Shown: positions 5,512-53,442 of the stretch, one piece after another | Numbering within the stretch: the first letter of the stretch is position 1 | How the letters are laid out: the number at the start of each line of letters is the position of its first letter | NCBI GenBank assembly: GCA_028279595.1 | Contig: JANQNK010000003.1 | Coordinates: 25,367-89,366, forward strand | Length of the DNA: 64,000 nt | Direction of reading: 5' to 3' | Origin: Thermoplasmatota archaeon | Lineage (GTDB): Archaea; Thermoplasmatota; JAKEGO01 | Program-made: the position numbers and the translations under genes | Notes under the pieces: generated by a model | Databases searched by the model: none | What the model was told of the DNA's origin: nothing | Seen by the model: the letters and a program-made list of their open reading frames with translations, nothing else

Positions 5512-5682
5512 TCGCACCCCACATCTACGATTTTCGGCTCAATTATTTACTGTAATACGGTGGAGGCGCGCGACGACGACCCCGTCGGGTCGTCCATGCG
5601 CCTCGCTTGCACTGGCTCAAGCTTCTGGCTGTAAGCCAAAACTTTTATACGGTCCTCCGGTTAGGACTCAAAGTGGTAGCCA

Positions 5683-7667
5683 TGGCCAGGCGACGCAAGA
5701 TAACCAGTGACGGCAGCGGTGTATCGAAGAAGGCCAAATCGGAGCCGAAGGCACCGAAGGGAAAACCTAGGACACCTGTAAGGAACATCCCGTGGGGCGC
5801 AATAGCCTTCGCGGTCATCATAGCACTCGTGGTCGCCCTCTTCGTCGCGATGCGTCCCGTCGACGACAGCGACGATGATGACGAGCCAATTGTCCCGACC
5901 GAGCTCGTCCGTTCATACGAGGCTTCCATTTCCACGGATTCCGTGTTCCTCCTGACTGACAGGAACGATACGATCCAGATCGTCGTGAACAACACTGGTG
6001 AACTGGATGACGATTACAACATCACGGTCGACCATTCGGACCAACTGGACATTCACGTATCGGACAGCCTCTCCCTCGACCCCGGAGAGAACGAGACATT
6101 GAACCTCACCGTCGAATCCATCGGCACCTTCGGCCTGTACGAGGTCTACATCAACGTTACCGTGGTCATTCCGGTCGATGAGGCGAACACTACGGCGGAG
6201 AACACCGTCATCGTCAACCGGACCACGCAGGTCCAGCTCGAGTTCTCCGTATACGTCTCCCAGTTCAACCTGGACATCCGCGTCCTCGACGACGCGGAGA
6301 CCGCGGCCCCGGGCGAGTCGGTCATCTTCGTCATCGAGATCGAGAACAACGGCACCCTCGACACTAACGTCGACCTCACCATATCGAAGCTGAACGTGGA
6401 CAACGGCGGAAAGGAAAAATGGACCGGAGCCGCCCAGCTCGATGCGCATCAGCTGGCGATGTTCGAGAACGACATCACCCATGTGCGCATGAACGTCACC
6501 GTTCCACAGAATGCGAACCCGGACGGCGAGGTTGCCCATTTCACGATAACCGCGGAATCGGTGGATGCCATTGCAGCCGGAGTTCCTCTTGCTGTATCGA
6601 CCCAGGTGCATCTGACGATATCCAACATCGGATTCTACGCAACCCCCGACTCCTACGAGAAGGAGGTCCAGGAGGAGCACTGGGTGGAGTTCGATTGCGA
6701 GATACGCAACTCGGGGGGAACTGACGTCTACGTCAAGTACCGGGTGTCCGAGATACCTGCGGATTGGATGCGTGACCTAGATCCCTACCCTGAGGACGGC
6801 TGGTTCCTCGGTGACACTCCAGTCACATTCTCCATCGCTATGAGGCCCGAGAACGTCGATATCGGTGATTTCCACCGCTTCATCGTCGAGATCTACTCCG
6901 ACGACCACAACGAGACGAGCTTCTTCTCCGTCAACGTTACCATAGCCGAACCGAGGTTCGATCTGGTCGCGCAGAGCCAATATGTCCCGATAGACCTCGA
7001 ACCGTTCGAGCGAGGGATCGCGTACGAGCACGAGATAATCATATCCAACCTCGGCCTCCTCGAGTACCAGGTGAACCTGACCCTGGAGCATCCCCCCACG
7101 TGGGACATGGACATCGATCCGGGTTGGATCTGGCTCGAGCAGTATTCAGGCACAGAGTGGGAGACAGCCACCCTCCGTTTCCTGATGCCGACCAACACCT
7201 CGGCCGGTGAGCATCCGTTCCTGGTAGTCGGCGAGGCATGGGGCATCGAGGTGGAGCTGAACCTCATCGCCGTAGTGGAGGAGTACCTGAACGGGACCCT
7301 CCATCTTCCGGCTGTAGTGCCTGAGCTCAACCTCTCCCAACCGCCGATCAACGGTTCCTCCCAGGAGTCCCTCGAATTCGTCATTACCAACACCGGGAAT
7401 TCGGCGGCAACCTTCGAGATCGTCATCGAGAACTACCAGGACCTTGACCTTCCAGGATGGAAGATCAATCTCACATCGGGACAGCACGAGGGCGACGAAC
7501 GCATCGTCATAACGATCAATCCCGGGAAGAACAAATCGGTATTCCTGAATGCCAAGGTCAATGATGAGCACGAGGAGGAGGTACTGCACCCGAGCCTATC
7601 ATTCCTGGTGCACCGGGACCCCATATGGCAGATCGACCGTATGGACGCGATCGTTCAGATCCAGTAG
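5683..7667 (+). CDS. Signal-anchored extracellular glycoprotein with repeated CARDB/Ig-like beta domains
   Basis: The start is probably the internal ATG at 5683 (MARRRKI). A basic N-terminus is followed by one TM helix (GAIAFAVIIALVVALFVAM). There are more than 25 N-x-S/T sequons (NDT, NNT, NIT, NET, NLT, NVT...) and repeated beta-rich segments. There is no C-terminal anchor. Confidence 0.5.
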
Positions 7668-7983
7668 GACTGTTCAACCTGGCGACACTCCCGACGGGAC
7701 CGGGTGCTTAGGACCTCATTGATAGGTAATTCTAACACCCGGGCCAGTCGGGAGCACGGTAGCTAGAAGGAATGAAGAGGAGTGCTCCCGACGGGATTCC
7801 GGTGGACACACCGTGCCCACCTCTCCCTTAACTCTATCCAATCAGTTGAATAACGTTCAGGGATCGAACTTCGTTCGAATCCCGTATGGCCCCGACGGGA
7901 CCGGTGTATTAAGAACCCAAAGATCTGTCAGATTAATCACCGGGCCAGTCGGGAGCACATTAGCTAGAGGATAATGAAAGGAG

Positions 7984-8058
7984 TGCTCCCGACGGGATTC
8001 GAACCCGTGTCCCCAGCTCGAAAGGCTGGAATGATTGGCCGGGCTACACTACGGGAGC
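7984..8058 (-). tRNA. tRNA-Glu (anticodon TTC)
   Basis: The reverse complement folds as a cloverleaf. The acceptor stem is GCTCCCG/CGGGAGC, the anticodon stem-loop is CCAGC-CTTTCGA-GCTGG, the T-arm is ACGGG-TTCGAAT-CCCGT, and the discriminator is A. CCA is not encoded. A TATA box (TATATAAA, 8075-8082) lies upstream. Confidence 0.85.
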
Positions 8059-8158
8059 ACGTCGGGGGACACATTCACCAGCCGTATATAAACGTTTTAG
8101 ATGTACAGAACACACGAAATCCTTAAATCGCCTACGGGATATCGCCCAATCCCATTGT

Positions 8159-8245
8159 GTGGGGATAGCCAAGCCTGGTATGGCGATAGCCTGCTAAGCT
8201 ATTGGCGGTTACGCCTCGGGGGTTCAAATCCCCCTCCCCACGCCA
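8159..8245 (+). tRNA. tRNA-Ser (anticodon GCT)
   Basis: The acceptor stem is GTGGGGA/TCCCCAC and the D-arm is GCCA..TGGC. The anticodon stem-loop ATAGC-CTGCTAA-GCTAT gives anticodon GCT. It has a long variable arm (TGGCGGTTACGCCTC) and T-arm GGGGG-TTCAAAT-CCCCC. Discriminator G and CCA are encoded. A TTAAAT box lies ~31 nt upstream. Confidence 0.9.
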
Positions 8246-8270
8246 TTTATCAGTAATCTATTCCGAAGGC

Positions 8271-8398
8271 GTGGGGAGTTGGGTCTCGAACCCCGGAATG
8301 GGCGGGGTTGTTTCGAAATTGATAGCAGTATTCTCAAACCAATTTCGAAACCCAGGTGGCGCGTAGCGTCACCATGGCAAATCCCCCTCCCCACGCCA
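8271..8398 (+). pseudogene. tRNA-Ser-derived tRNA-like element (rearranged paralog, pseudogene or att-site remnant)
   Basis: It shares the 5' GTGGGGA and 3' CAAATCCCCCTCCCCACGCCA termini with tRNA-Ser(GCT). It keeps a GATAGC anticodon-stem remnant and a variable-arm-like hairpin, but no canonical D or T arm can be formed. It contains a perfect 12-bp inverted repeat (8310-8321 / 8340-8351). Confidence 0.4.
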
Positions 8399-8451
8399 TT
8401 TATAATAATATTCAGAAAACGGTTAAGTAAACTCCTGTATCTACCGAAGCG

Positions 8452-10732: not shown

Positions 10733-10828
10733 GCCGGCGGCGAATGGAATAACACAACGCCTCCCTACGCCTACTCTACAATGCCAGTTATCTTAACGAA
10801 TGTGATGACTTGCTCAGACCTTAACATA

Positions 10829-11383
10829 TCATTTTGTAACAGCGTCCCACAGGACGTCGAAACTATCTTCCAATTCCTTTTCATTGATCTTCTTTCGTTT
10901 AGAAAATTCCATTATGAAGACCTGATGCAGTGTAAACAGAATATTACCGAACATTTCATACGAATATTCTTTCAGGGTACCCTTCTTCATTTCCTCTTCA
11001 TATGCAACCCGATATTTCTTCAGCATTGCTGCAGATGCCAATTGGCTCTCCTTTGAGATGTATTTGGAATTCAGAAAGAGGGTAAAGAAGAGGTTGTAAT
11101 CCATATTCTTCAAGGACCACTTGGTATATCCTATCCAGAATTTCTTCAGTTTCAATTCAAAATCATCTTCTTCAACGTAATATGAGTTCATATCTTCGAG
11201 CATATCATTTTTAATGTGCATATACGCTGCATTCATCAGGGCTTCCTTTGTCTTATAATGGTAGAATAGCGTTCCTGAGGCTACGCCCGATTCTCTGGTG
11301 ATTTGAGCTGTGGGGGTGTTCTCGAATCCTTGTTCGACGAATAGTCTGATCGCGGTTTCCAGGATTTTCTGTTTATTATTCAT
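10829..11383 (-). CDS. TetR/AcrR-family transcriptional regulator
   Basis: 184 aa. It has an N-terminal HTH (ILETAIRLFVEQGFENTPTAQITRESGVASGTLFYHYKTKEAL). The gene is AT-rich (~38% GC) and lies 36 bp downstream of the hydrolase gene, so it is probably in the same operon. Confidence 0.85.
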   Translation of the reverse strand: MNNKQKILETAIRLFVEQGFENTPTAQITRESGVASGTLFYHYKTKEALMNAAYMHIKNDMLEDMNSYYVEEDDFELKLKKFWIGYTKWSLKNMDYNLFFTLFLNSKYISKESQLASAAMLKKYRVAYEEEMKKGTLKEYSYEMFGNILFTLHQVFIMEFSKRKKINEKELEDSFDVLWDAVTK

Positions 11384-11419
11384 TCAAGCACTTCAACGAT
11401 TATCATTGATGTATTCCGT

Positions 11420-12316
11420 TTACTTCATATACTTATCGAACCAGCCAAGAATGGGTTTTGGATTGGTACCAATCCAGTCGTAAGCAGCCATTCGGTTGAA
11501 GTTGGCATTCTTCAACTTGGGAATCTCTATCCAGAGCATTTTCTTCTCTACCTTCAGGTCATTGTAATATGTGTTAACAAATTTCTCATCAAGGTAGCCA
11601 TCGTTCTTGTTCTGAATTACTAATGTTGGAATATTGATCGTCTTCACATTATGCATAAATGTATTTGTCGAGTAATCGATCCCTGTTCGGTTTTTGATCT
11701 TTTTATTAACACTTTTAATAAATAATTTAGGCAATGCCCCAGCTTGAATGAACGTCTGATAATCCAGGGGTTGGACAGATACCATGGCTTTCAGATTCTT
11801 GTACTCCCTCAAGCCATCTTCATCCCCGAAAGCATTGGTGGATGCAGCCTGTCCCATACAGATGCTAAATAACCCGATCTTGGCATTTTCATATTCCTTA
11901 TGGTTCGATATGAATTTTACAGCGGCGATGATATCTTTCCTTTCTTCAAGACCCCAGGTGACCCAGGGAATGGTCCCCAAACCACTATTCCCGTGTGCTC
12001 TGAAATCATACATTAGAACGGAATATCCAGAATCATTGAGGTATTTCGCCTGTCTTAGGAAATGTACATCCTTGTGGTATCCTTTAACCATTCCCTTTCC
12101 CTCAAGCGTATAACCTGATCTGCTGCATTGAATCCCGAAATGAGATTGTATTATTACTTTATCCTTGGCGCCTTTGATCAACCATCCTGAAAGTTTTACG
12201 CCATCCGAAGTATCAAATTTGACGTTCTCATAATCAAGACCATACTCCTTTGGATCATCGAACACTTGACCCTGATAAGGTTTAATCATCGCATCTGTCA
12301 GTAAATTCGCAATCAT
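11420..12316 (-). CDS. Alpha/beta-hydrolase-fold protein (dienelactone-hydrolase/BAAT-like)
   Basis: 298 aa. The motif YDFRAHGNSG with a following nucleophile elbow (CMGQAAS) resembles an alpha/beta hydrolase. The gene is AT-rich and sits in the island. Confidence 0.55.
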   Translation of the reverse strand: MIANLLTDAMIKPYQGQVFDDPKEYGLDYENVKFDTSDGVKLSGWLIKGAKDKVIIQSHFGIQCSRSGYTLEGKGMVKGYHKDVHFLRQAKYLNDSGYSVLMYDFRAHGNSGLGTIPWVTWGLEERKDIIAAVKFISNHKEYENAKIGLFSICMGQAASTNAFGDEDGLREYKNLKAMVSVQPLDYQTFIQAGALPKLFIKSVNKKIKNRTGIDYSTNTFMHNVKTINIPTLVIQNKNDGYLDEKFVNTYYNDLKVEKKMLWIEIPKLKNANFNRMAAYDWIGTNPKPILGWFDKYMK

Positions 12317-12349
12317 TTATTCACTTCCTGGAATCACATCTACAACTTA

Positions 12350-12375
12350 ACTGAGTACTCAGTCAGTATTTAAAC
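12350..12375 (-). promoter_or_regulatory. Perfect 14-bp palindrome ACTGAGTACTCAGT next to a TATTTAAA box; putative TetR operator and promoter of the hydrolase-TetR operon
   Basis: A perfect palindrome at 12350-12363 lies between the TATA-like box (12368-12374) and the ATG at 12316. Its arms GAGT/ACTC resemble the palindromes at 15740 and 19595. Confidence 0.45.
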
Positions 12376-12506
12376 TTTATCCATAACTCCTGCACTTTCT
12401 ACGTTGAGAACTGTAGTAATTTACCTCGCACGGTATATAGTCCGATAGAACCGAGCTGAAGTCCCCACACTCTATACCAGTTTCATTGATTCATGGTGCA
12501 GTTCGA

Positions 12507-13073
12507 TCACTTCTTGATCATATCCCACAAGGTAGGGAAGAACTTCTCAATCACCTTCGGGTCCTTGAGCTTCCTTGACGATAGGTAGAGTATGGTAAAA
12601 TTGACGTGTGACATTATCGCCTCCGATAGATAATCCATCGGGAGGTCCTTGATGAGTCCCTCGTCGACAGACCTTTGATAAATGTCTCCCATAAGGTCAA
12701 ATTCCGCAGAGAATTCATCCATTGTGAGCTTGGTGATATATGGCGATGACTTATACATCGCTAGAAATTTCATCTGATTCGGATTCTTTATCCCCCAGGC
12801 GATGCCGATATCCCAGAATGTTTTCACAGCCTCCTCGTTCAACAAGGAATCCTCGGTCAATTGCGGGAAAATGCCCATGAACTCCTGCTTCGTCCCGAGG
12901 TAGAGTTCATTGATCAGTGCCTCCTTGTTCTCGAAGTAGGAGAAGAGTGTCCCAGTACCGACGCCAGCGTCCTTTGTGATACTGGTTGTGGACGTATTGT
13001 CGAATCCTCTTGTCACGAAGAGCTTCAGTGCGCTCCTCATGATGGCATCCCTCTTATTCATCTTTTCACTCAT
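12507..13073 (-). CDS. TetR/AcrR-family transcriptional regulator (paralog of 18126-18716)
   Basis: 188 aa with the HTH AIMRSALKLFVTRGFDNTSTTSITKDAGVGTGTLFSYF. It is ~70-75% identical to the ORF at 18126-18716. It lies 13 bp downstream of the RND exporter gene. Confidence 0.85.
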   Translation of the reverse strand: MSEKMNKRDAIMRSALKLFVTRGFDNTSTTSITKDAGVGTGTLFSYFENKEALINELYLGTKQEFMGIFPQLTEDSLLNEEAVKTFWDIGIAWGIKNPNQMKFLAMYKSSPYITKLTMDEFSAEFDLMGDIYQRSVDEGLIKDLPMDYLSEAIMSHVNFTILYLSSRKLKDPKVIEKFFPTLWDMIKK

Positions 13074-13086
13074 TGTACCACTTAAC

Positions 13087-15702
13087 TCACTTATTGTATT
13101 TTTTTCTATTGCCCGACCTCTGCCTTCGAGATGAGGATCGAGTCCTAGCGATTTTCTTGCGAGCTAGCGGATGGATACGACGTCCCTTCGCAGTAGTCCT
13201 AGCCCATACGACCAGTATGCTTGGCTGTATGAACACCGAGGCCAGTAACGAATAGAGGATCATAAGAGCGGTCAGAGTGCCGAACTGCTGCATCATTCCC
13301 TGCGGGGATAGCGCAAGGATGCCAAAGCCTACCATCGTGGTCACAGCTGCGCCGAAGAGTGCTGTGCCGGTGTGGCTAACTGTAGTGATCACAGCCTTCT
13401 CTATTCTACCATGGTCCTCGAGCTCTTCCGTGAATCGGTGGGTAACATGAATTGCATAGGTCACTCCGAGACCGATGCTGAGTGATCCGATGAGAAGCGT
13501 CATTACATTCAGAGATATGTCGAGGAGGAACATGGTGCCATGGATCCATATGAGTACTAAAATGACCGGGAGTGTGGTGATGATCCCCAAGCTCTTCGAT
13601 TTTACCGAGTTCCAGAATACCAGGGAAAGTACTACAGAGGAAACGACCACAGTGATAATGATCGATGTCAGCATAGAATCATTGATCGCTCCGAGAACGA
13701 GGTTCATTATCACTGGTTCTCCAGTAAGTATCACCCTGTTCACGGTACTCTTCGACTCGAGTCTCTCCAAGGGCGCGGCGTCATCTTCAATGTACGAGAT
13801 TATTTCATCGGTCTTGGAATGTCCCTGTGAGTCTACCCTGATCCGGATCAAGGCGACAGTATATTTTCCGCTATCTTCATCGAAGTACAGGACATTGTCG
13901 AGTTCTCCTGGGTGGTTCTCTGTGATGTACTCGAATAGAACGCTAACATTCGAATCCGGAACATTGTCATCATCAAGATCCTCTGCTCGATACATGGCCT
14001 CGAAATCGGGATCGTAGAGGTCCCCATCGGATACGGTGGACACGTTGGCGAGGTCTCTCATGACCGTAAGCGGGGATTCCACACCATTCCCACCTTGAAA
14101 GAGTATTATCTCTCTATCATCGTTCTCGATGTTCGTATGTGTGGCATCCATGGCCTCGAGCACCTCCGTGGTTGCTACGTTTTCACCTTCGACATAGATG
14201 ATCACGGATTCCTCGGAGAAGTCGAACTCGGTCTGCATGTACTCGAACTCGTCTCTGACCTCGCTACCCTCAGGCAATCCTGCCTCGACGAAATTGAATG
14301 TTGTGGATACCATAGTTGCCAATACCAGCAATATCAGGGTTATTGCAGTCGCTGCCGTCAGTGTCCATTTGGGATGGGATCCCGCAATCTTCCCCCCAAA
14401 ACCCATTGCTTTCGTAAATCCAACCGAGATCGGATTTCTGGTACCGATACCGGAAGCCCTGTCCTTGTTAGACGGTGAGAGGAGATCTTTCCCCTTCTTA
14501 ACTCTGTATGTGTCAATAAGAACCCTACAGGCTGGAACGAAGGTGACGAACACGATATAGGCCGCTAGGATACCTACTGCGACCGTGATCCCGAACTCGC
14601 GGATTGGACCTATATCGGATGTTCCGTTCGATAGGAAACCGATCATACTGGTGAAGGCAGCGAGGAGGAGGGCTGCTCCGGCGGAGACAATGGAGATATC
14701 CGCAGCCTTTCTCACTGTATCACCTTGGGCGATCCGTTCCCTGTATCTCATAGTAAGATGTATGCTGTAGTCCACCCCAAGTCCGATCAGCAAGATGGGG
14801 ACTATGGTGGCAGCCTCGGATGTGTAACCCATGTATATCATGAAGCCTTGGATCCATATCAGAGAGAAAACCAGAGCGAGCAGGCCTATCATCAGATCGC
14901 TTATCGTGCGGAACGTGATCCATAGAACGACGATGATCATTCCAAATGCAATGGGGAACAAGGTGTTCATGGTATAATCCCAACCCTCTTCCATCGTATC
15001 GTTGATCTTCGTGTTCGTGAGCGCGAATGGCCGAACGGAGGAATATTTCCTCTCGGAGACCACCTTGTCAATTCTCCGCTCGATGCGCTCGATCCTATCA
15101 TCTCGATCTTCAGATGTCTCACCAGGCAATATTGTCTTATCAACAGTGACCATCATGAGTGCAGAACGATATTGGCCACCATTTTCTGAGGATGTCAGAA
15201 TATGAATTAATGCTCCAAGGTCAGGGATCTCCAGAGAATCGTTGAATACGCTCCTCAATTCGCTGTTGGTCATATTTCCGTATGATGAGACCAGTGATGA
15301 ATGGTTCCCAGCTTCAGGAAACGCTAGAGGTGCGAGGAGTCGGGGAAGGCTGATGATCCCATCCTGGGAAAGGTTTCCAGATATGACGTCATCCTCTCTC
15401 AATGAAGATTCTAGCTCGAGCATACCGATGAAACAATCAGTCGAAATGATGTCCAGATCCTTATCGGGGGAATTCTCGTGAACCAATACAATGACGTTGT
15501 GGCTCTGGCTGAATTTCTCATCGATATCATCCCTCGCGTCAACCGCCTCATCCCCAGGTATCCATGCATCTTCACCCTGCAAGTCGGCGGCGGGAACGGT
15601 CAAGATGATACCCATCATTATCATCGTGACCAGTACTACGGCCCCGATCGTCAATTCTGGTCTTCCTGTGACCATCTTGCTGACGTTTTTCAATATCTTC
15701 AT
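13087..15702 (-). CDS. RND-superfamily exporter (MMPL domain, COG1033-like)
   Basis: 871 aa. It has two 6-TM bundles, each preceded by a large extracytoplasmic loop, and the typical MMPL/SSD region ...GIGVDYSIHLTMRYRE... and ...GLGVTYAIHVTHRF.... The gene is AT-rich. Confidence 0.85.
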   Translation of the reverse strand: MKILKNVSKMVTGRPELTIGAVVLVTMIMMGIILTVPAADLQGEDAWIPGDEAVDARDDIDEKFSQSHNVIVLVHENSPDKDLDIISTDCFIGMLELESSLREDDVISGNLSQDGIISLPRLLAPLAFPEAGNHSSLVSSYGNMTNSELRSVFNDSLEIPDLGALIHILTSSENGGQYRSALMMVTVDKTILPGETSEDRDDRIERIERRIDKVVSERKYSSVRPFALTNTKINDTMEEGWDYTMNTLFPIAFGMIIVVLWITFRTISDLMIGLLALVFSLIWIQGFMIYMGYTSEAATIVPILLIGLGVDYSIHLTMRYRERIAQGDTVRKAADISIVSAGAALLLAAFTSMIGFLSNGTSDIGPIREFGITVAVGILAAYIVFVTFVPACRVLIDTYRVKKGKDLLSPSNKDRASGIGTRNPISVGFTKAMGFGGKIAGSHPKWTLTAATAITLILLVLATMVSTTFNFVEAGLPEGSEVRDEFEYMQTEFDFSEESVIIYVEGENVATTEVLEAMDATHTNIENDDREIILFQGGNGVESPLTVMRDLANVSTVSDGDLYDPDFEAMYRAEDLDDDNVPDSNVSVLFEYITENHPGELDNVLYFDEDSGKYTVALIRIRVDSQGHSKTDEIISYIEDDAAPLERLESKSTVNRVILTGEPVIMNLVLGAINDSMLTSIIITVVVSSVVLSLVFWNSVKSKSLGIITTLPVILVLIWIHGTMFLLDISLNVMTLLIGSLSIGLGVTYAIHVTHRFTEELEDHGRIEKAVITTVSHTGTALFGAAVTTMVGFGILALSPQGMMQQFGTLTALMILYSLLASVFIQPSILVVWARTTAKGRRIHPLARKKIARTRSSSRRQRSGNRKKYNK

Positions 15703-15735
15703 TCAGATCACCACGGTGACTGTTATTCATATCCA

Positions 15736-15806
15736 TTTCGAGTGACTAATCACTCAATAACATTGGGAGTATATATAATTATTGATTGAGCAGTCACTCA
15801 ATAATT
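15736..15806 (-). promoter_or_regulatory. Conserved operator/promoter element, copy 1: palindrome GAGTGA-CTAA-TCACTC (15740-15755), TATA box (15768-15782) and palindrome ATTGAG-CAGTCA-CTCAAT (15785-15802)
   Basis: It lies 40-100 bp upstream of the RND exporter start. It is ~80% identical over ~75 bp to the element at 19591-19660. Confidence 0.5.
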
Positions 15807-15868
15807 CGGGTCGTATCAAATCTGATGAATGATCTCAGCGATGTCCATTCGATCCAACGGGTCTTGCT

Positions 15869-16861
15869 CTATGGGACGTTGAGCCTTTCCAATCCGACTA
15901 TACCATAACTGGAATCGACCAGTTTGTTTGCCTTTTCAATATCCCGGGCATTTGGATTGGGGGATTCCATCGGCCAACCGCCTTTCTTACATTGCTTGTC
16001 CCTGTAGAGCACACTCTGTTGGCTGAAATAGGCTCCCGAATGCCTCGGTGCGTCATCAGAGAGCAGACAGTGAAGTGACGTCTGAGCGGACTCCTCGTTG
16101 CTGTTGGTCCAGAAGGGATAGATCGGTGCCATCAGCACCCTCATGATCGTCATCAACAGACCTTTGCCACCGAAGTTCGACCTCGCCCAACCCGGATGTA
16201 CGGAAGCCGTTGTTACACCGGTACCCTCGAGCCGATTGGCAAGTTCTAAAGCGTATAATACATTCGCGACCTTTGCCTCTCCATAAGCCGCGAAGTTTTT
16301 GAATTTCCTTGATTGATAGTTCAGGTCTTCAAGGTGGACATCATGCCTGTTCTTTGGGCTGCCTGCATGAACGACGGACGAAAGAATTACTATCCTCGAA
16401 GGAGCGCTCTTCTTCAATACATCAAGCAGCAGTTCCGTCAACAGGAAATGGCCGAAATAGCTGACCCCTATGGTCATCTCTAGGTCATCCTTCGTACGCT
16501 GGATCTCCCGACCCATCGTCACAAGCCCTGCATTGCATGCTAGACCGTCCAGTCTGTCATATTTCTTCAAGAATTCAGCGACGAAATCCCTCACCGATTG
16601 GAGGTCGGCAAGATCTATCCTCATCACATCATAACTCCCTTTCAGTCCCTTGAAGCTCTTGGCCACCTCCTCTCCCGCTTCCGTTCTCCTACATGCCATG
16701 ACCACATGTCCACCCTGCTTCACAAGCTGTCTTGTCGTCTCAAGACCTACTCCCGAATTGGCCCCGGTTACGATGTACACCTTTCCGCTCATATCTTTAG
16801 CGAGGGTCTTCTCATCGACCCATATGACATCCTTTCTACCCATTCTCATCACCACTTTCAT
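15869..16861 (-). CDS. Short-chain dehydrogenase/reductase (SDR; retinol-DH/WWOX-like)
   Basis: The TGANSGVG cofactor motif and the catalytic YxxxK region (YGEAKVANVLYALE) are present. The N-terminus overlaps the upstream LtrA stop, so the true start may be at an internal Met (16849/16843). Confidence 0.8.
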   Translation of the reverse strand: MKVVMRMGRKDVIWVDEKTLAKDMSGKVYIVTGANSGVGLETTRQLVKQGGHVVMACRRTEAGEEVAKSFKGLKGSYDVMRIDLADLQSVRDFVAEFLKKYDRLDGLACNAGLVTMGREIQRTKDDLEMTIGVSYFGHFLLTELLLDVLKKSAPSRIVILSSVVHAGSPKNRHDVHLEDLNYQSRKFKNFAAYGEAKVANVLYALELANRLEGTGVTTASVHPGWARSNFGGKGLLMTIMRVLMAPIYPFWTNSNEESAQTSLHCLLSDDAPRHSGAYFSQQSVLYRDKQCKKGGWPMESPNPNARDIEKANKLVDSSYGIVGLERLNVP

Positions 16862-18125
16862 TTCTCCGATTGACAGTCAATTCATCCATTTCTTCTGGGA
16901 TCAGGCCTCTCATCCAAGTCATCATTGCCGCGATTATTGGTAGGAAGAGAAGTACGTTGGTGATTACGAGTATTTGGGTCGCCCCCAGGTCCAGAAGGCC
17001 GAAGGGGAGCAGCAGGATTGCCGCGATGGGTAATACCTTCCTGCCCACAGCCAACGGTCGTTCGAATTCTCTAGCTATCTGCAGGGTCTTGACCAAAAGA
17101 GCGATCGATACAAGAACAATGGAAAGGGATACGATTATCGACCAACGCACCCCATCGGGAAGATGGTCTCCCTCGTGTTCTATCATGTAAAGGATCGAGG
17201 CTCCGATGACGGTTATCCCTGCGGTCATTGGGAGATGGAGGTAGAACCATCTCATCGTGTTTGACATCCCCGGGCGGGGCAGTCGACTAGAGACCGTGTC
17301 GAAGTATGTCCACCAGATACCGACCGCCAAAAGGGTACCAAGCATCACCTTGGTGCCGAGCTCCCACGTGATATCATGGTGATCTGCAGCTCCGCTGACA
17401 ACGCTGAACACTATCTCTCCGAGGACGATGATGGTTAGGAGACCAAACCTTTCACTCAGTGAAGGGCTGACACTTGAACCGATCTCGAGCTGTTTCCGGG
17501 CTTCAGGATTCCTCCGACCGATCGCAATGAGCATGGTCGGAAGTATGAGGGAAAGGACGAAAGCGAGAGCCCAGAGATAGAACCGGGCCGGTGGTGCAAT
17601 GAAGATCGAACCCGCGAACAGGACGGTATTGAGTAGGAATACCGCTGAATACGGACCCGACAATGGACGGTGATCCGGGTCATGTACTCCCGTCCTCCAC
17701 CAGAGGAACGTCAGGATGAGCTGGAAACCGGCGTAGGAAAGGGCGAATCCCCGCGACGTATCACCCATGGCATCGTGCGCGAAGATCGCCATCATCACGA
17801 CAGTTGCCATCTGGAGGAAGGTGAAGACCCTCGTCCGGATGTCGTCGTTACCATGTACATCGTGGTACAGGGATCCGTTCAACCACGCCCACCAGACTAA
17901 GACGAACAGGAAGGAGAACTCACCGATGCCTACCCAGGTTATGTGGTGAACCAGCGCATGGGAGAGTTGAGCGATGAGTGCCACGTAGACGAGGTCGTAG
18001 AACAGTTCGAGGAACGTCACTGTTCGATGCTCGGGACGATCCCCTGCCCTTCTTGGTGGTTGCCACCAATGATGTAAGGTCCTAGGACGGGTCCTCATAC
18101 GCCGATGTCCCCCCTGTCGATCCAT
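16836..18125 (-). CDS. Low-temperature-requirement A (LtrA)-family integral membrane protein
   Basis: 429 aa and polytopic. The N-terminal motif VTFLELFYDLVYVALIAQLSH...WWAWLNGSLYHDVHG is characteristic of bacterial LtrA (PF06772). Confidence 0.65.
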   Translation of the reverse strand: MDRQGGHRRMRTRPRTLHHWWQPPRRAGDRPEHRTVTFLELFYDLVYVALIAQLSHALVHHITWVGIGEFSFLFVLVWWAWLNGSLYHDVHGNDDIRTRVFTFLQMATVVMMAIFAHDAMGDTSRGFALSYAGFQLILTFLWWRTGVHDPDHRPLSGPYSAVFLLNTVLFAGSIFIAPPARFYLWALAFVLSLILPTMLIAIGRRNPEARKQLEIGSSVSPSLSERFGLLTIIVLGEIVFSVVSGAADHHDITWELGTKVMLGTLLAVGIWWTYFDTVSSRLPRPGMSNTMRWFYLHLPMTAGITVIGASILYMIEHEGDHLPDGVRWSIIVSLSIVLVSIALLVKTLQIAREFERPLAVGRKVLPIAAILLLPFGLLDLGATQILVITNVLLFLPIIAAMMTWMRGLIPEEMDELTVNRRNESGDENG

Positions 18126-18716
18126 TCACTTCCGGATCATATCCCATCCGGTCGGAAAGAGATCCTCTATGACCTTCGGGTCCTTGATCTTCCTGGATGT
18201 GAGATAGAGTATCGTGGCATACATGTGAGAGGTCGTTGCCTCCATCAGGTAGTCGATGGGCAGGTCCTTTATCAGACCCTCCTCGATCGATCTTTGATAC
18301 AGGTCTCCCAGTAACTCCATTTCATCGGCGATCTCGGATTGCGTGAGCTTGGTGATGTAAGGTGAGGACTTGTACATCACGATGAACTTCATCTTGTCAG
18401 GATTCCTGATCCCCCAGTTGATGCCCAGGTCCCAGAACGTTCTGACGACCTCCTCGGTCAGTAGGGTATCGTCCGACAACGGCGGGAAGATTCCCATGAA
18501 CTCCTTCTTGGTCTCAAGATAGAGCTCGTTGATGAGCGCTTCCTTGCTGTCGAAGTAGTTGAACAGCGTCCCTGTCCCCACCCCGGCATTCTTGCTTATG
18601 TTGGCCGTGGACGTGTTGTCGAAGCCCTTGGTCGTGAAGAGCTTCAATGCGCTCCTCATGATCGCTTCCCTTTTGTCCTTTGGCTTACTCATCGCTACCG
18701 TATCCTCCTGAACCAT
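18126..18716 (-). CDS. TetR/AcrR-family transcriptional regulator (paralog of 12507-13073)
   Basis: 196 aa with the HTH EAIMRSALKLFTTKGFDNTSTANISKNAGVGTGTLFNYF. Its stop abuts the LtrA start. Confidence 0.85.
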   Translation of the reverse strand: MVQEDTVAMSKPKDKREAIMRSALKLFTTKGFDNTSTANISKNAGVGTGTLFNYFDSKEALINELYLETKKEFMGIFPPLSDDTLLTEEVVRTFWDLGINWGIRNPDKMKFIVMYKSSPYITKLTQSEIADEMELLGDLYQRSIEEGLIKDLPIDYLMEATTSHMYATILYLTSRKIKDPKVIEDLFPTGWDMIRK

Positions 18717-18750
18717 TTATTACTTGCTCCATACTCGAACATCCTGAGCT

Positions 18751-19575
18751 TCACCTGAAGGCCCGCCGGATCATCCGGTCGTATCCTCGGTCGCCAAAGA
18801 GCCTTCTCATCCAGATCATCGTCCTTGCCATCTGGCCCTTGACATATCTGGTCTTTGGTTTCCTCACGGTCGCAGCCTTAGCGATCGTCTCTCCAAGAAC
18901 CTCCGGATCGGTACCCATCGTTTGCATCCTCGGGCTGTCCATTAACTTGAGGTATGGATCAATCTGACCTTTGTATGCATTTCCATTATCGTACTTTTTC
19001 AACTGTTCTCCGACGACAGCACCAAAGTTCGTCCTTATCGCTCCCGGCTCGATGACCACTACGTCGATACCGAACTCCTTGACCTCGATCCGCAGGCAGT
19101 CAGAGAATCCCTCGATCGCGTGCTTGGTGGCATGGTACCACGCGCCAAGCGGCGTATAGATCTTGCCTCCCATCGAGGATATATTCACTATCCTTCCGGA
19201 CTTCTGCCTCCTCATGTGGGGAAGCACCATCTGGGTCAGCTCGACGAGGCCGAAGTAGTTCACATCGAACTGGTATCTACCATCCTCCATGGGAACGAGT
19301 TCCACGGGACCGTAGAGGCCGAAGCCGGCGTTGTTTATCAGTATGTCGATTCGACGGTCCTTTTCAAGGATCATATCCACCGCTCGCCTGTTGTCTTCGG
19401 TCTTTGAAACGTCCATGCCTATTGGTACGATCCCGAATCTCTTCAGGTCCTCCATCTTGTCGACGCTTCTCGCTCCTGCGTAAACCTTGTGTCCCTGTTT
19501 CGCGAGGATTTTGGCAGCTTCCTTCCCCATTCCGGAGGAGGCTCCCGTAATCAACACAATCTTCTTTTCCATCAT
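18751..19575 (-). CDS. SDR-family oxidoreductase (classical)
   Basis: 274 aa with TGASSGMG, NNAG and YHATKHA (YxxxK) motifs. Confidence 0.85.
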   Translation of the reverse strand: MMEKKIVLITGASSGMGKEAAKILAKQGHKVYAGARSVDKMEDLKRFGIVPIGMDVSKTEDNRRAVDMILEKDRRIDILINNAGFGLYGPVELVPMEDGRYQFDVNYFGLVELTQMVLPHMRRQKSGRIVNISSMGGKIYTPLGAWYHATKHAIEGFSDCLRIEVKEFGIDVVVIEPGAIRTNFGAVVGEQLKKYDNGNAYKGQIDPYLKLMDSPRMQTMGTDPEVLGETIAKAATVRKPKTRYVKGQMARTMIWMRRLFGDRGYDRMIRRAFR

Positions 19576-19590
19576 TTCCTCAACCTCCTT

Positions 19591-19660
19591 ATTGATTGAC
19601 TAATCAGTCATGTATGGGCTAGTATATATAGTTATTGATTGAATAGTCAGTCAACAATTT
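19591..19660 (-). promoter_or_regulatory. Conserved operator/promoter element, copy 2 (TGATTGACTAATCAGTCA palindrome, AGTATATATAG TATA box, ATTGATTGAATAGTCAGTCAACAAT)
   Basis: It lies 20-85 bp upstream of the SDR gene start (19575). It is ~80% identical to copy 1. Confidence 0.5.
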
Positions 19661-19726
19661 GTATAGGTACTGGCTCCCTATCAACCATAGAAAAATACTT
19701 GTAAATTGTCCTGAAATTCGCTTCAC

Positions 19727-21235
19727 TCAAGTATGTCGCCGCTTTCTCCGGTCGACTGCGATGAAGAGTGTTATGATCGCCAAGGCCACCGGCAGGATAG
19801 GCAGTTCAGGAACCTTCTGAGGTGCGCTGTTCTCGGTGTAGTTAATCAATGGATATCGATCCTCCGCACCTGCACTTCCATCGATAGAATATTCGGTCTC
19901 TCCGATGCCATCTCCGTTGCTGTCCGTTCCGTTATAATCTGACCAGTAGTTACCGTGGGTCCCGTTGTCCCAGGTGTTCTTACTGTTGTTGTCGTACCCT
20001 TGCGAGGTGCTCTCACCATTGCTGAGGAAGTTGTTGTGATGGATGACATTATCATAGCTGTCGGCGATGACGCAACCGTAGTCGGTATTGTTGAAGATCT
20101 CATTGTAAGAGACGGTGTTGTTGTTCGAGAAATCATCCAGATCGATCCCATGGATACCGTTCGAATTAACTGTATTGTTACCAATGTCGTTCCTGTAAGA
20201 TGAATCAGAATAGATCCCAGTTTCGTTGTTTGAGCTCACGATGTTATGTAGAAAAATATTGTTCCCGCCCTGATTGATATGGATGCCGTCACCGCTGTTC
20301 ATGCACACAGTGTTGTTCGAGACGTTGTTTCTGAATGCTTCGTAGAAGTATATCCCATACTCACCGTTGGAAATCGCGTTGTTATTACTTATTGAGTTGG
20401 GACCAAAAATGTATCTTAAGTATATTCCATATCGACCGTTCGAGGTCAAATCGTTATCTTTGATGATATTATTGTCACTTGATCTGCTGTAATTCGTTTT
20501 CACACTAAAAGTAGAAATGAGCTTGATACCCAGGTCAGAATTCGCACTTGCATTATTGTCCTTTATTGTGTTGTATGTCGAGGCATCGAGGTATATACCA
20601 AAATAATTTGAACTGACACTATTGTTCTCGATCACAGTGGTGTTGCTGTCGCGTTTAAGATAGATTCCAACATTATTGTGGGTAACGACATTGTTGGAAA
20701 TCGAATTGTTGTTCGAGCCCTTTTGGAAGATACCCGAATCAGTGTTCGAACCGATCAGATTGTACTCAACGGTATTGAAATTGCTCGAGGAGTTCAGGAA
20801 GATGCCATCTCCGCCGTTCCAGCTGATGTTACAATTGACGATCGTGCAGTTCTCTACAGAGGTTAGTAGGATGCCAGAATCAAGGTAGGCTGATCCTGAT
20901 CCAGTAATTTGAAGATGAGATAAATTGACATTATCCGCAGTTATGTTGAGCGTGATCCCACTACCAGTCGCATTTACTATGGTGTTCGAGGAACCATTCC
21001 CGATCAGTGAAAGACTCTTGTTCACAAGAACGTTCTCGAGATACGTCCCATTGAACACGTAGATCGTGTCCCCGTCCGATGATGCGTTAATAGCGTCCTG
21101 TATCGAAGAATGATCGGCCCAACCACCATCATCATCGACGGTAAAGGTCTCTGCTTTGATAGTTGGAAGCGCTTGAAGTGCTATCACGAGGACCATCATC
21201 GTGATCAGCAACCTGGCAATGAATTCCGTCGCCAT
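19727..21235 (-). CDS. Secreted right-handed beta-helix (NosD/PbH1 repeat) protein with a C-terminal TM and basic anchor
   Basis: 502 aa. There is an N-terminal signal peptide. The module TFTVDDDGGWADHSSIQDAINASSDGDTIYVFNGTYLENV is homologous to the N-terminus of the 2028-aa ORF. It has many N-x-S/T sequons and parallel beta-helix repeats. The C-terminus is PILPVALAIITLFIAVDRRKRRHT. The gene is AT-rich. Confidence 0.7.
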   Translation of the reverse strand: MATEFIARLLITMMVLVIALQALPTIKAETFTVDDDGGWADHSSIQDAINASSDGDTIYVFNGTYLENVLVNKSLSLIGNGSSNTIVNATGSGITLNITADNVNLSHLQITGSGSAYLDSGILLTSVENCTIVNCNISWNGGDGIFLNSSSNFNTVEYNLIGSNTDSGIFQKGSNNNSISNNVVTHNNVGIYLKRDSNTTVIENNSVSSNYFGIYLDASTYNTIKDNNASANSDLGIKLISTFSVKTNYSRSSDNNIIKDNDLTSNGRYGIYLRYIFGPNSISNNNAISNGEYGIYFYEAFRNNVSNNTVCMNSGDGIHINQGGNNIFLHNIVSSNNETGIYSDSSYRNDIGNNTVNSNGIHGIDLDDFSNNNTVSYNEIFNNTDYGCVIADSYDNVIHHNNFLSNGESTSQGYDNNSKNTWDNGTHGNYWSDYNGTDSNGDGIGETEYSIDGSAGAEDRYPLINYTENSAPQKVPELPILPVALAIITLFIAVDRRKRRHT

Positions 21236-48453: not shown

Positions 48454-49398
48454 TCACTCCTTCAGGAACTCCATGATCTGCCGTCTGATGAGGTGGTAGG
48501 CGACGATGTTCCCGTACTCCTTCGAGAGCTCGTGTCCGCGCTTCATCAGGCTCTCGTGGAACCCGGAAGGCAGGAAGATGGGCCCGTGCTCGAGCTCCAG
48601 TCCGCCGAAGCCCGCTTCTATGACAATGCGTATGAGCTGGAGGATGGAGTCCTCGCCGTACCCCTTCGGGATCACGGTGATCTCGATGGAATCGTCCCCG
48701 TACTCGAGGGTGTGGATGACGTGCTCCCTGAGCAGGTGACGCTTCGGGAGTCTCGGCAGCAGTATCTCGATCGGCTTCGATCCAGCCTCGTCGACCAGCA
48801 CCTCGCGCTTTCCCCTCTTCATGTGCCAGAGCCTCACCTTGGCCTTCCTGTCCCTGTCCACCCTTATGGTGCTGTTCTCGGTGAGGTGACGGCCGGTGAC
48901 TATCCACCGTTCGTCGATGAGTATCTCTATCGGTATGGGTGAGGGCAACGGGTATACGCCTCCCGACCTCGCGGCCTCGACGACGTCCTGCGGTTTCAGG
49001 ACTATGCCGCTGTACTTACGCAGTGATACAGCGTCCTCGGAGACTGTGTGCGCGTACTCCTCGAGCTGATGCTGGACCCATGCTATGACCGGTGCGGATA
49101 TCCTCTCGGCTCCGGCTCGTTTCATTATCCGCCGGACGGGGGATCGGAAAAGGACGTCCTGCTCGGACCACTCGAACGACCTCGCCTTCGGCTTCAACCG
49201 GAGGGTGGCCTCCTCTACGTCCTTGGGTTTGATGATCTTCCGTCTGTCCTCGTGACAGATGCGCACTGCCTCCTCTCCGATGCGCAGAGCGTACTCCTCC
49301 AGGGCGCTCCTCATGTAGAGCGTCCCGGTCAACCTGACCCGGTCTGCCCCTCCCTGCTTCAGGAGTCGTCTGACCGGTGCTACGAAGAGTTCTGGCAT
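48454..49398 (-). CDS. Tandem histone-fold (doublet) protein fused to a ~180-aa C-terminal domain of unknown function
   Basis: Two HMf-like folds are present: ELFVAPVRRLLKQGGADRV...AVRICHEDRRKIIKPKDVEEA and VLFRSPVRRIMKRAGAERI...AVSLRKYSGIVLKPQDVVEAA. For comparison, HMfB has LPIAPIGRIIKDAGAERV...RKTIKAEDIELA. Confidence 0.7.
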   Translation of the reverse strand: MPELFVAPVRRLLKQGGADRVRLTGTLYMRSALEEYALRIGEEAVRICHEDRRKIIKPKDVEEATLRLKPKARSFEWSEQDVLFRSPVRRIMKRAGAERISAPVIAWVQHQLEEYAHTVSEDAVSLRKYSGIVLKPQDVVEAARSGGVYPLPSPIPIEILIDERWIVTGRHLTENSTIRVDRDRKAKVRLWHMKRGKREVLVDEAGSKPIEILLPRLPKRHLLREHVIHTLEYGDDSIEITVIPKGYGEDSILQLIRIVIEAGFGGLELEHGPIFLPSGFHESLMKRGHELSKEYGNIVAYHLIRRQIMEFLKE

Positions 49399-49444
49399 CA
49401 CTACCGAACCCCTTATTATTGGTAGGGTAGTTAACGATTATGGT

Positions 49445-53092: not shown

Positions 53093-53195
53093 AAATGAAG
53101 GGCTCGCGGGGACCGGACGCTTAAGAATGAATTGACCTGTTGGTATAACGTCCGGGCCTAGCGAGCCCGCGTTACCGAGAAGATAATGTGAGGAG

Positions 53196-53269
53196 CGGGC
53201 TCGCGGGGATTTGAACCCCGGTTTGAGGCTCCGGAGGCCCCAGTGATATCCAGGCTACACTACGAGCCC
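53196..53269 (-). tRNA. tRNA-Arg (anticodon CCG)
   Basis: The reverse complement has acceptor GGGCTCG/CGAGCCC, anticodon stem-loop GGGGC-CTCCGGA-GCCTC (anticodon CCG), T-arm CGGGG-TTCAAAT-CCCCG and discriminator G. A TATATATAT box lies at 53291-53299 upstream. Confidence 0.85.
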
Positions 53270-53442
53270 GCAGTGGTCAAGTCCACTCTCTATATATATG
53301 GCTTTTCGGCAGGACGTTCCTTCTGATGGGGATGATCGGCGCTCGCTGACAGCTCTTTCCGTCAGCAACGCGTCTCACCAATGTAGATCCTATTGATGGC
53401 GGATTCATAGGTATTATATGCCGGGTCGGCTGTCATGTCGGC

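Follow-up and report, generated by a model that had tools for sequence, protein, structure and literature searches.

The attC sites of integrons and the attP(+) hairpin of CTX phage are recombination sites that act as folded single strands, and the stem of the CTX site mimics its chromosomal target duplex; in the attC consensus, RYYYAAC ... GTTRRRY boxes form the base of the hairpin, and IntI is found nearby. Among the non-coding RNAs (ncRNAs) linked to tRNAs are the E. coli 3'ETS-leuZ, the herpesvirus tRNA-miRNA TMERs and a tRNA-like element before the 5S rRNA of Haloferax. Casposons are recognized by a 14-15-bp target duplication at the 3' border of a tRNA, terminal inverted repeats and Cas1, and the casposon target of Aciduliprofundum boonei, which also belongs to the Thermoplasmatota, carries a 15-bp duplication that overlaps the tRNA by 5 bp (PMC5137440). 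Here, we describe a 64,000-nt stretch of a Thermoplasmatota archaeon (GCA_028279595.1, contig JANQNK010000003.1, positions 25,367-89,366 of the forward strand; hereafter, the window; the homologues of its proteins also carry Thermoplasmatota names), in which the sequence downstream of tRNA-Glu holds two copies, H1 and H2, of a conserved, lineage-specific tRNA 3'-flank module, and a third copy follows tRNA-Arg. The module spans about 97 nt on the tRNA strand, directly after the tRNA 3' segment X1, and consists of a 24-nt linker and a long imperfect hairpin, H, of 72-74 nt. The first 14 nt of H (X') are the reverse complement of tRNA positions 61-74 and the last 13 nt (X2) repeat positions 60-72 in sense, while an 11-bp upper stem with one bulge and a partly conserved 20-nt loop lie in between.

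tRNA genes were called with ARAGORN and the Rfam tRNA model, and repeats were detected by self-alignment and with Tandem Repeats Finder. Close relatives are few, and the contigs used for comparison are Thermoplasmatota metagenome contigs: L006/L007, which are JGI contigs, L008, L009 and the 1-kb contig L003, the sole match of a metagenome scan with the H core pattern. Nine distinct full-length copies make up the H alignment, from which a covariance model was built and run over about 225 kb; the alignment of X1 with X' covers seven complete units. tRNA-Glu lies on the minus strand, at 7983/7984-8058 by ARAGORN and Rfam, so that 'downstream' means lower coordinates, as an earlier preliminary description of the locus had assumed. 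The locus reads as follows.

7983-8058, minus strand: intact tRNA-Glu(UUC) (ARAGORN; Rfam tRNA model, 59.7 bits)
7997 to 7983, minus strand: segment X1, the last 15 nt of tRNA-Glu, from U60 to nt 74
7959-7982, minus strand: linker 1, 24 nt, pyrimidine-rich on the tRNA strand, UCCUUUCAUUAUCCUCUAGCUAAU
7886-7958, minus strand: hairpin H1, 73 nt, loop type alpha (fold, covariance model, L007 orthologue)
7800-7885, minus strand: inter-unit segment, 86 nt, with two small hairpins (inverted repeat; alignment with L007 and L003)
7782-7799, minus strand: exact 18-nt copy of the tRNA-Glu 3' end, GAAUCCCGUCGGGAGCAC, from the T-loop to nt 74
7758-7781, minus strand: linker 2, 24 nt
7685-7757, minus strand: hairpin H2, loop type beta (fold, covariance model, L007 orthologue)

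In H1, X' (7958 to 7945, GUGCUCCCGACUGG) and X2 (7900 to 7888, UCCCGUCGGGGCC) enclose the upper stem and the 20-nt apical loop; the hairpin folds with -33.5 kcal/mol (z -4.0 against shuffles), scores 80 bits with the covariance model and has its orthologue at L007 10643 to 10570. H2, with X' at 7757 to 7744 and X2 at 7699 to 7687, is more stable still (-41.3 kcal/mol, z -6.2 against shuffles, 86.5 bits), and its orthologue at L007 10424 to 10351 has three compensatory pairs in the upper stem. Directly past H1, at 7860-7885, lies a tail hairpin with one antisense and one sense T-loop-like arm (GGGATCGAAC ttc GTTCGAATCCC on the plus strand), the first part of which (GGGAT.ACGAAC) is kept after both hairpins in L007 and L008. 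At the other end of the inter-unit segment, a 9-bp hairpin, hp (7801-7821), abuts the tRNA fragment, and alignment shows equivalents of the tail, of hpC and of hp to be conserved in L007 and L003. The 18-nt fragment serves as X1 of the second unit, although no tRNA body precedes it and neither ARAGORN nor Rfam calls a tRNA there. Upstream of tRNA-Glu, the minus strand reads as an archaeal-type B recognition element (BRE)/TATA box, AAAACGTTTATATA, at a distance of about 30 nt. A Logan assembly contig of the same strain, L001, starts inside tRNA-Glu (L001 1-30 corresponds to window position 8031 or thereabouts), and the repeats downstream of this tRNA probably break short-read assemblies here.

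The similarity of the two units, reported in the preliminary description as that of two ~200-bp stretches, holds up in formal alignment: 7690-7799 and 7891-8000 form a gap-free direct repeat of 110 nt with 75% identity and a spacing of 201 nt. Only about 110-120 nt of each 201-nt unit can be aligned in this way, which is why Tandem Repeats Finder reported nothing in the window, even with min_score 30, and we rejected the identification as a tandem repeat since only the 110-nt partial repeat is present. The recurring 18-mer, GTGCTCCCGACGGGATTC on the plus strand, occupies 7782-7799 and 7983-8000; its second position had been given correctly, the first had been placed at 7784. Copies of CCGACGGGA(C/T) lie at 7691, 7788, 7892 and 7989, in both units, and the two spacers, at 7758-7781 and 7959-7982, measure exactly 24 nt. 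These repeats exceed chance, given that the 19-mer GTGCTCCCGACTGGCCCGG matches twice against 0.05 expected, with up to three mismatches permitted, and that the core pattern GGCCCGG-N3-TTA-N22-TAA-N4-CCGGTCC occurs at exactly three places in the 64 kb against 0.00 expected. The third of these places is downstream of tRNA-Arg. The exact 18-nt match and the repeat alignment likewise bear out that the sequence is tRNA-Glu-derived and duplicated. By contrast, the segment that had been taken for a tRNA 5' half is in fact the reverse complement of the 3' end: it covers the discriminator and nt 74, and its bases beyond the seven acceptor positions correspond to the complement of positions 65-64 and not to tRNA positions 8-9.

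The copy at the second tRNA has the same plan.

53195-53269, minus strand: tRNA-Arg(CCG) (ARAGORN)
53098-53194, minus strand: module of tRNA-Arg, comprising the linker (53171-53194) and hairpin H-Arg (53098-53170), loop type gamma

In H-Arg, X' is complementary to the 3' end of tRNA-Arg and X2 is a 13-nt copy of it; the hairpin folds with -36.5 kcal/mol (z -5.5), is recovered by the covariance model and has its orthologue at L009 250 to 177. In all three window copies, the tRNA-derived 13-mers are spaced by 97 nt. The linker measures 24 nt in seven of seven complete units, with a conserved UCCU start and G.UAAY end, and the H cores are of identical length throughout, so that the nine distinct copies align without a gap.

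The relatives share these layouts. L006/L007 carry tRNA-Glu, linker, H1', the inter-unit hairpins, the fragment, linker and H2' in the arrangement of the window, L008 holds a partial copy and ends inside the last hairpin, and L009, the GPN GTPase of which is 83% identical, has tRNA-Arg, linker and H. The order of the two units at the Glu locus is thus shared by the window and L006/L007, and at the Arg locus both the window and L009 have a single unit. Contig L003 contains the 3' fragment of a tRNA of another specificity, followed by a linker and three tandem H copies (Ha, Hb and Hc). Three lineages of loops can be distinguished, namely alpha (Glu H1), beta (Glu H2 and L003 Hb) and gamma (Arg, L009 and L003 Ha/Hc); since they cross tRNA specificities, one loop lineage can carry different tRNA-specific bases. 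Furthermore, the start of L003 is homologous to the inter-unit segment of L007, with the tail GGATGA(C)GAACCC in common, and this composite shares the hairpins GTTYGGAAAC...GTTTCCRAAC and GATGAYGCGAAGCRTCATC, which are followed by AMGG-TCGAATCCC and a tRNA-specific end. The 'tRNA fragment' and the hairpins upstream of it are therefore a conserved part of the arrangement, seen with two specificities. Within the roughly 225 kb searched, the covariance model found no further copy of H and none away from a tRNA.

The hairpin itself is supported by strong covariation. Across the nine copies, 89.4% of the cells of its 24 pairs are paired, against 28-49% in slid controls, 11 pairs show changes on both sides, and the covariation score is 0.41 compared with 0.16 in shuffles (0/500). 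The upper stem, for instance, occurs as GGGTG/CACCC, GGACG/CGTCC or CCTTACG/CGTAAGG. The irregularities are just as constant: all nine copies have a mismatch opposite tRNA C63, a pyrimidine-pyrimidine pair (U.C) with A.C in the window H-Arg, and all nine retain the C.U mismatch opposite U60 and the one bulge. The lower stem covers exactly the 12 positions of the acceptor and T-stem stack, with the fixed C.U where the T-loop would begin. Wobble pairs are biased towards the tRNA strand, with 13 G.U pairs there against 3 A.C cells, where the other strand would have G.U. The base after X2 varies and corresponds to a non-cognate discriminator; X2 is thus not simply a displaced original end of the tRNA. 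No complementarity of the apical loop to the linker or to the cognate tRNA was found by eye.

This structure is conserved far above the neutral level, the unpaired loop included. As a neutral yardstick, we used the identity at four-fold sites, which is 0.54 (RpoA') and 0.60 (NusA) between the window and L007, and 0.42 (GPN) between the window and L009. Over the same distances, 58 of 71 positions are identical in H1, 55 of 71 in H2 and 64 of 71 in H-Arg, where the loop has 19 of 20; H is therefore 77-90% identical between lineages with 42-60% identity at four-fold sites. The linkers have 12-18 identical positions out of 24.

Conservation of this kind bears on the view taken in the preliminary description and disfavoured already, namely that the units are functionless relics of tRNA duplication or old attachment (att) scars, whose pairing would stem from template-switch mutation and short-tract gene conversion. 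The material is indeed tRNA-derived and duplicated, and templated (quasi-palindrome) mutation can yield compensatory changes without selection. Nonetheless, we consider this reading most unlikely, given the conservation far above neutral even in the unpaired loop, the invariant lengths of core and linker, the mismatches and the bulge kept in nine of nine copies, which palindrome correction would erase, and the lack of any tRNA found in H by ARAGORN or Rfam. What had been described as decayed tRNA copies is a length-invariant hairpin family, present also after tRNA-Arg, which is conserved above neutral and changes in compensatory fashion. The description had named a conserved functional RNA in related genomes as the finding that would speak against it; the conservation half of this is what we see at the orthologous loci.

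The module co-evolves with its tRNA. As X' is antisense to the 3' strand of the tRNA, it can pair either with X1 or with X2. The X1:X' helix has 13 bp and is closed by the 24-nt linker; over the seven units, its 13 pairs are 97.8% Watson-Crick, against 26-41% when slid, and six of the pairs have changed on both sides. It spans the discriminator and nt 74, where X2 does not match. The units of one genome agree completely in X1 (18/18) and X' (14/14), whereas the remainder is 55-65% identical. Between genomes, the tRNAs themselves differ: compared with that of the window, the tRNA-Glu of L007 has A:U instead of G:C at 7:66 and U:A instead of A:U at 49:65, and correspondingly L007 has CCCATC for X' and GATGGG for X2, in its two hairpins as well as the fragment, where the window has CCCGAC and GTCGGG. 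In L009, X' tracks its own tRNA (G64) and X2 retains C64, a discrepancy which indicates that complementarity to the upstream tRNA end is the better-kept relation. Beyond nt 74, the complementarity of X' ceases: every unit has U or C at the following position, where G would be required.

The pairings X':X2 and X1:X' are mutually exclusive, and both are backed by covariation. In the minimum-free-energy fold of tRNA-Glu, linker and H1, the X1:X' helix (11 bp, 24-nt loop) replaces the acceptor stem, so that the competition between the two is thermodynamically real. On the 5' side of the tRNAs, we noticed that the two leader bases before tRNA-Glu (GU, 8059-8060) and tRNA-Arg (GC, 53270-53271) complement the discriminator and nt 74, as do their counterparts in the relatives (L007 10744-10745 and L009 350-351); such pairing would give the precursor an acceptor stem of 9 bp, an unusual length among RNase P substrates.

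We tentatively favor, at clearly less than even odds, the reading that the module is a co-transcribed RNA of the tRNA 3' trailer with alternative pairing of X1:X' and X':X2. The module would be transcribed by read-through from the tRNA promoter and would act in cis as RNA. Once the tRNA is folded and X1 is buried, X' would pair with X2, and the stable X':X2 hairpin would cap and define the trailer and present the conserved loop to a partner. If X1 is free, X' would capture it instead and the precursor would be diverted from normal end-processing. Copy number may grow by unequal exchange between the 13-nt direct repeats. What the sequences show are the anatomy, the two exclusive helices with their covariation, the co-evolution with the tRNA, the conservation far above neutral and the strand bias of the wobble pairs; transcription, the choice of helix in vivo and any effect on tRNA maturation are inferred. 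The layout is that of a co-transcribed RNA linked to a tRNA, on the same strand, directly 3' and without an intervening promoter or strong terminator: the module always has the orientation of the tRNA and always lies 24 nt off it, T-runs in the linker do not exceed four, and no TATA-like box or BRE was found at a proper distance from H (a TATA-like string before the hp hairpin of L003 is not conserved in L007). A co-transcribed trailer RNA best explains the three-segment matching, the extension of X' over nt 73-74 and the fixed distance and orientation, as well as the wobble bias and the conservation in place.

Some of these features would also suit a small-RNA gene that rides on the tRNA transcript, with the 20-nt loop as its working part; the acceptor/T-stem-like base would allow RNase P and tRNase Z to excise the hairpin, as happens with other tRNA-linked hairpins. 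Its lower stem corresponds to the seven acceptor and five T-stem positions, with the C.U at the border of the T-loop, the loops are conserved (19/20 in H-Arg) and fall into three classes, and there is no promoter of its own on what is the strand of the tRNA. Structure-specific enzymes, however, need no sequence identity with the neighboring tRNA, the better match of X' to X1 than to X2, nt 73-74 included, would be left unexplained, the base after X2 is variable and no T-loop or elbow mimic is evident, all of which makes this reading rather improbable.

A further role suggests itself from the genes on the other side. At every locus, a convergent ORF (open reading frame) has its stop codon 5-38 nt from H: the Ig-like protein (5607-7667), 17 nt from the end of H2, the Tag glycosylase and, in L009, a Tag-like ORF. 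As the reverse complement of H folds almost equally well, H could be a structure serving the convergent genes or both units, as a 3'-UTR (untranslated region) stabilizer or a bidirectional insulator. We regard this as highly unlikely: it would leave the tRNA-specific stems and the fixed 24-nt distance unexplained, the wobble bias favors the tRNA strand, no U-tract follows the hairpin on either strand, and H1 adjoins no ORF.

Several observations weigh against the reading as a trailer RNA. The X1:X' helix is without any wobble pair, as a DNA copying process would give, and recent horizontal spread is another possible source of the high identity across divergent genomes. That transcription continues across the linker is an assumption. 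In front of the second unit stands a tRNA 3' fragment alone, without a tRNA body whose folding could be sensed, and the idea of a folding sensor does not account for this; tandem H copies also exist that have neither X1 nor linker (L003 Hb and Hc). In L003, moreover, the whole composite of H, tail, two hairpins, T-loop fragment, linker and H recurs with a different specificity, which resembles the behavior of a transposed element more than that of a regulatory RNA. The neighboring tRNA-Ser is without a member of the H family, the sample consists of three tRNA species from one narrow clade, and we know of no benefit of such regulation of tRNA-Glu or tRNA-Arg.

The chief competitor is a family of miniature integrative elements, non-autonomous and directed at the T-loop and 3' end of tRNA genes, which would be inserted through site-specific recombination provided in trans and would accumulate in tandem. 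The element would correspond to the ~97-nt unit or to the composite of ~200-220 nt, and either the X':X2 stem would re-create the target duplex, in the manner of a folded single-strand attachment site, or X' would be a guide to the target. A fixed 13-nt direct repeat (U60 to nt 72) flanks every unit at the constant 97-nt spacing, the identity of the 18-20-nt fragments begins in the T-loop, tandem arrays occur with one copy at Arg, two at Glu and three in L003, loop lineages extend across specificities (beta at Glu and L003, gamma at Arg and L003), and so does the entire composite, which is conserved at two of them. Imperfect hairpins with fixed mismatches also resemble folded recombination sites. 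Other observations speak against it: the post-X2 bases are not the tRNA discriminator, there are no terminal inverted repeats, no H copy lies away from a tRNA in the roughly 225 kb covered by the covariance model, and collections of phages, plasmids and IMG/VR yield no match. The units also hold orthologous positions in the same order in lineages with 40-58% four-fold divergence, with compensatory changes in place. Finally, no integrase, transposase, recombinase, Cas1 or reverse transcriptase was found by Pfam in 32 of the 50 window ORFs (of at least 90 aa), which include all ORFs flanking the three H copies and represent ordinary chromosomal genes, and the precomputed Pfam lists by which we judged the neighbor genes of the relatives show no integrase, transposase or Cas1 next to the H copies. 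Overall, we hold such an element to be only slightly less probable than the trailer RNA.

Two further loci speak for it. One is tRNA-Ser, next to tRNA-Glu, which is a genuine insertion hot spot.

8159-8245, plus strand: tRNA-Ser(GCU) (ARAGORN/Rfam)
8246-8403, plus strand: arrangement downstream of tRNA-Ser, not homologous to H (direct and inverted repeats, fold)

A spacer at 8246-8267 (22 nt by coordinates; 23 nt between the arms by repeat search) separates the tRNA from a 28-nt inverted copy of its 3' end at 8268-8295 (75% complementary), and a 26-nt exact direct copy follows at 8378-8403, 153 nt on. The 130-nt stretch in between folds with an 11-bp stem that closes three hairpins (-70.1 kcal/mol, z -6.5). 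This arrangement, analogous to H in design, is absent from the relatives, which have other units there. In L007, 10926-17769, the roughly 6.1 kb from tRNA-Ser to the contig end contain five called genes, for cation efflux, FTR1, MntP, a 901-aa protein and peptidase M10. The same peptidase M10 gene is found in L005 immediately before CNNM, on its upstream side; in the window, tRNA-Ser and CNNM are adjacent. Fragments of the tRNA-Ser 3' end, AAATCCCCCTCCCCACG, occur in units of ~100-110 nt just after tRNA-Ser and upstream of CNNM (L004 5880-6020; L005 1690-1820). The second locus is that of tRNA-Lys(CUU) in L011 (GCA_017973855.1 JAEMOG010002337, the P0130 contig, from a more distant member of the Thermoplasmatota), at 10780-11110 on the minus strand. 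It is followed by 3.4 copies of a 99-nt unit, 99% identical to each other, which start with CTCCTTTTTGATAATTT, end with the last ~11 nt of the tRNA and reach up to the stop codon of a convergent GPN GTPase gene; by the covariance model, this array is not homologous to H. The contigs of two more distant relatives, P0128 and P0003, have no tRNA near the marker genes.

The preliminary description had also considered footprints of repeated integration and excision at tRNA-Glu. In its favor, the identity of the fragment begins in the T-loop, like that of attR remnants, and the hot spot at tRNA-Ser is real; at tRNA-Glu itself there is neither an integrase, in the 32 of 50 window ORFs scanned, nor polymorphism between the window and L006/L007, the polymorphism among the relatives being confined to the tRNA-Ser flank. 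Nor does the locus mark a disruption of the operon of RNA polymerase and NusA, as had been suggested from its lack of a continuation into rps12/rps7. In L006/L007, the genes run rpoB-rpoA'-rpoA''-L30e-nusA-Ig-like protein and then tRNA-Glu and tRNA-Ser, and the order rpoA''-L30e-nusA-Ig-like protein-tRNA-Glu is unchanged in three related contigs, so that the absence of rps12/rps7 after nusA is a trait of the lineage. The protein in their place (window 5607-7667, plus strand) has 686 aa, is probably a surface protein and is only 67-70% identical across the related contigs, compared with 94% for RpoA'.

Elsewhere in the window, 11000-21000 stands out by a low GC content of 0.40-0.52, compared with about 0.60 in the rest, and encodes TetR regulators, a hydrolase, an MMPL transporter, two short-chain dehydrogenases, LtrA and a NosD/beta-helix protein. 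This stretch is possibly a genomic island, and no recombinase was seen there. In a 315-aa ORF at 48454-49401 on the minus strand, an archaeal histone fold (CBFD_NFYB_HMF) is confined to the first 65 residues, and the ORF appears to encode a histone-fold fusion protein. Two further ORFs are very long, with 2028 aa (21406-27492, plus strand) and 1761 aa (58514-63799, minus strand).

Among the families searched, the module matches no described RNA or mobile element. Rfam 15, run at E<=5-10 on the window region, L003 and L007, returned only tRNAs and noise, and with blastn against phages and plasmids only the tRNA part was matched. Pattern scans of IMG/VR with the H 5' arm, the H core, the hp hairpin and the gamma and beta loops gave no match, while a scan with the tRNA 3' end gave a single, unrelated viral tRNA-like gene. 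This gene (L002 557-640, minus strand, on the 236-kb viral contig IMGVR_UViG_3300005544_000020) agrees with the window tRNA-Glu throughout the 24 nt of T-arm and acceptor 3' strand and has a different body. Species-representative genomes had no match to a 31-mer of tRNA-Glu and returned nothing for an RpoA'' query made via non-conserved peptides, and full-text searches of the literature yielded no description of such an element.

Individual identities were rejected on the following grounds. For a tRNA pseudogene, H lacks homology to the tRNA body and shares only positions 60-72 and their complement; ARAGORN and the Rfam tRNA model called only intact tRNA genes, and H does not change at the neutral rate, being well conserved and strongly covarying. 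For an att-site remnant, the 18-nt repeat from the T-loop at 7782-7799 and the 13-nt repeats (U60 to nt 72) that end each H are as expected, but there are no genes of an integrase or element in the 32 of 50 window ORFs or beside the related copies, and the Glu and Arg loci show no presence/absence variation, being constant in the window and the relatives. The base of H consists of tRNA-specific sequence and not of the R''/R' boxes of an integron attC, and no integrase is found in the 32 of 50 window ORFs scanned; for a casposon or mini-casposon, the repeat comprises 13 nt inside the tRNA, the element ends are not inverted repeats and the scanned ORFs include no Cas1. A T-loop intron or a permuted or split tRNA was dismissed as no bulge-helix-bulge motif is present and no cloverleaf is completed; the folds are continuous helices with 1x1 or 2x2 mismatches and without 3-nt bulges 4 bp apart. 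For a C/D-box or H/ACA guide or any other Rfam family, the Rfam search gave only tRNAs and noise, and the alignment has no conserved RUGAUGA/CUGA pair, the box-like strings varying between copies. The complementarity of X' stops at nt 74, short of the CCA that the primer-binding site of a retroelement would include.

In more general terms, the module may be a programmable one that pairs with a particular tRNA 3' end, either as an archaeal 'trailer switch' that reads tRNA folding or as a retargeting, guide-bearing mini-element, which would rewrite the antisense (X') and sense (X2) copies of its target to switch between tRNA genes. We hold this to be unlikely rather than likely; if true, it would be a kind of element not described before. 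As an RNA device, it would, to our knowledge, be the first tRNA precursor with a co-evolving cis element that pairs with its own acceptor/T-stem strand, and would add a new layer to tRNA maturation or quality control in archaea. As a mobile element, it would be a minimal one, with its target specificity written in a target-mimicking hairpin, and would be relevant to the choice and switching of tRNA targets by integrative elements and to programmable recombination. On either reading, the H family is testable, with strong covariation and a fixed geometry, and has been overlooked by tRNA finders and Rfam; 'tRNA fragments' downstream of tRNA genes are hence not automatically integration scars.

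How does the module compare with known systems? With the att remnants of tyrosine integrases, it shares direct repeats of the tRNA 3' segment that begin in the T-loop and units stacked after an intact tRNA, and the pattern at tRNA-Ser is the classic one; unlike them, the H unit is without integrase or cargo, has a fixed length of 97 nt, includes an antisense copy of the core and has covarying orthologues. The casposon site of A. boonei likewise has the tRNA 3' end as its target, a duplication of fixed length, the T-loop as 'leader' and predicted tandem arrays (PMC5137440), whereas the 13 nt of the module lie wholly inside the tRNA, and neither terminal inverted repeats nor Cas1 are found. Permuted and split tRNA genes of archaea have the same order of 3'-acceptor strand, linker and 5'-acceptor strand (PMC3218864, PMC3978253), but the module has no bulge-helix-bulge and no D-arm or anticodon arm after X', and an intact tRNA lies upstream of it.

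The tRNA-linked ncRNAs are similar in being structured RNAs directly 3' of a tRNA on the same strand, promoterless and plausibly freed by tRNA-processing enzymes. We know of none among 3'ETS-leuZ, the TMERs and the Haloferax element that copies the neighboring tRNA end both ways or co-evolves with the tRNA. With attC and the CTX attP(+), the module shares the form of an imperfect 60-150-nt hairpin that preserves its structure and certain fixed unpaired bases more than its sequence; in contrast to attC, however, the base of H lacks the RYYYAAC/GTTRRRY boxes, there is no IntI or Xer context, and it is the middle of the stem that is conserved and the base that varies, the reverse of attC. In bacterial attenuators and T-box leaders, finally, segment 2 pairs exclusively with segment 1 or segment 3, just as X' pairs with X1 or X2, and the pairing segment is programmable for each tRNA. 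Here, the differences are that the module resides in a tRNA trailer, that it is archaeal, that its segment 1 is part of the tRNA and that it has no terminator U-tract. In how it works, the module comes closest to three-segment alternative-pairing RNAs or to folded hairpin attachment sites, and it belongs to neither class.

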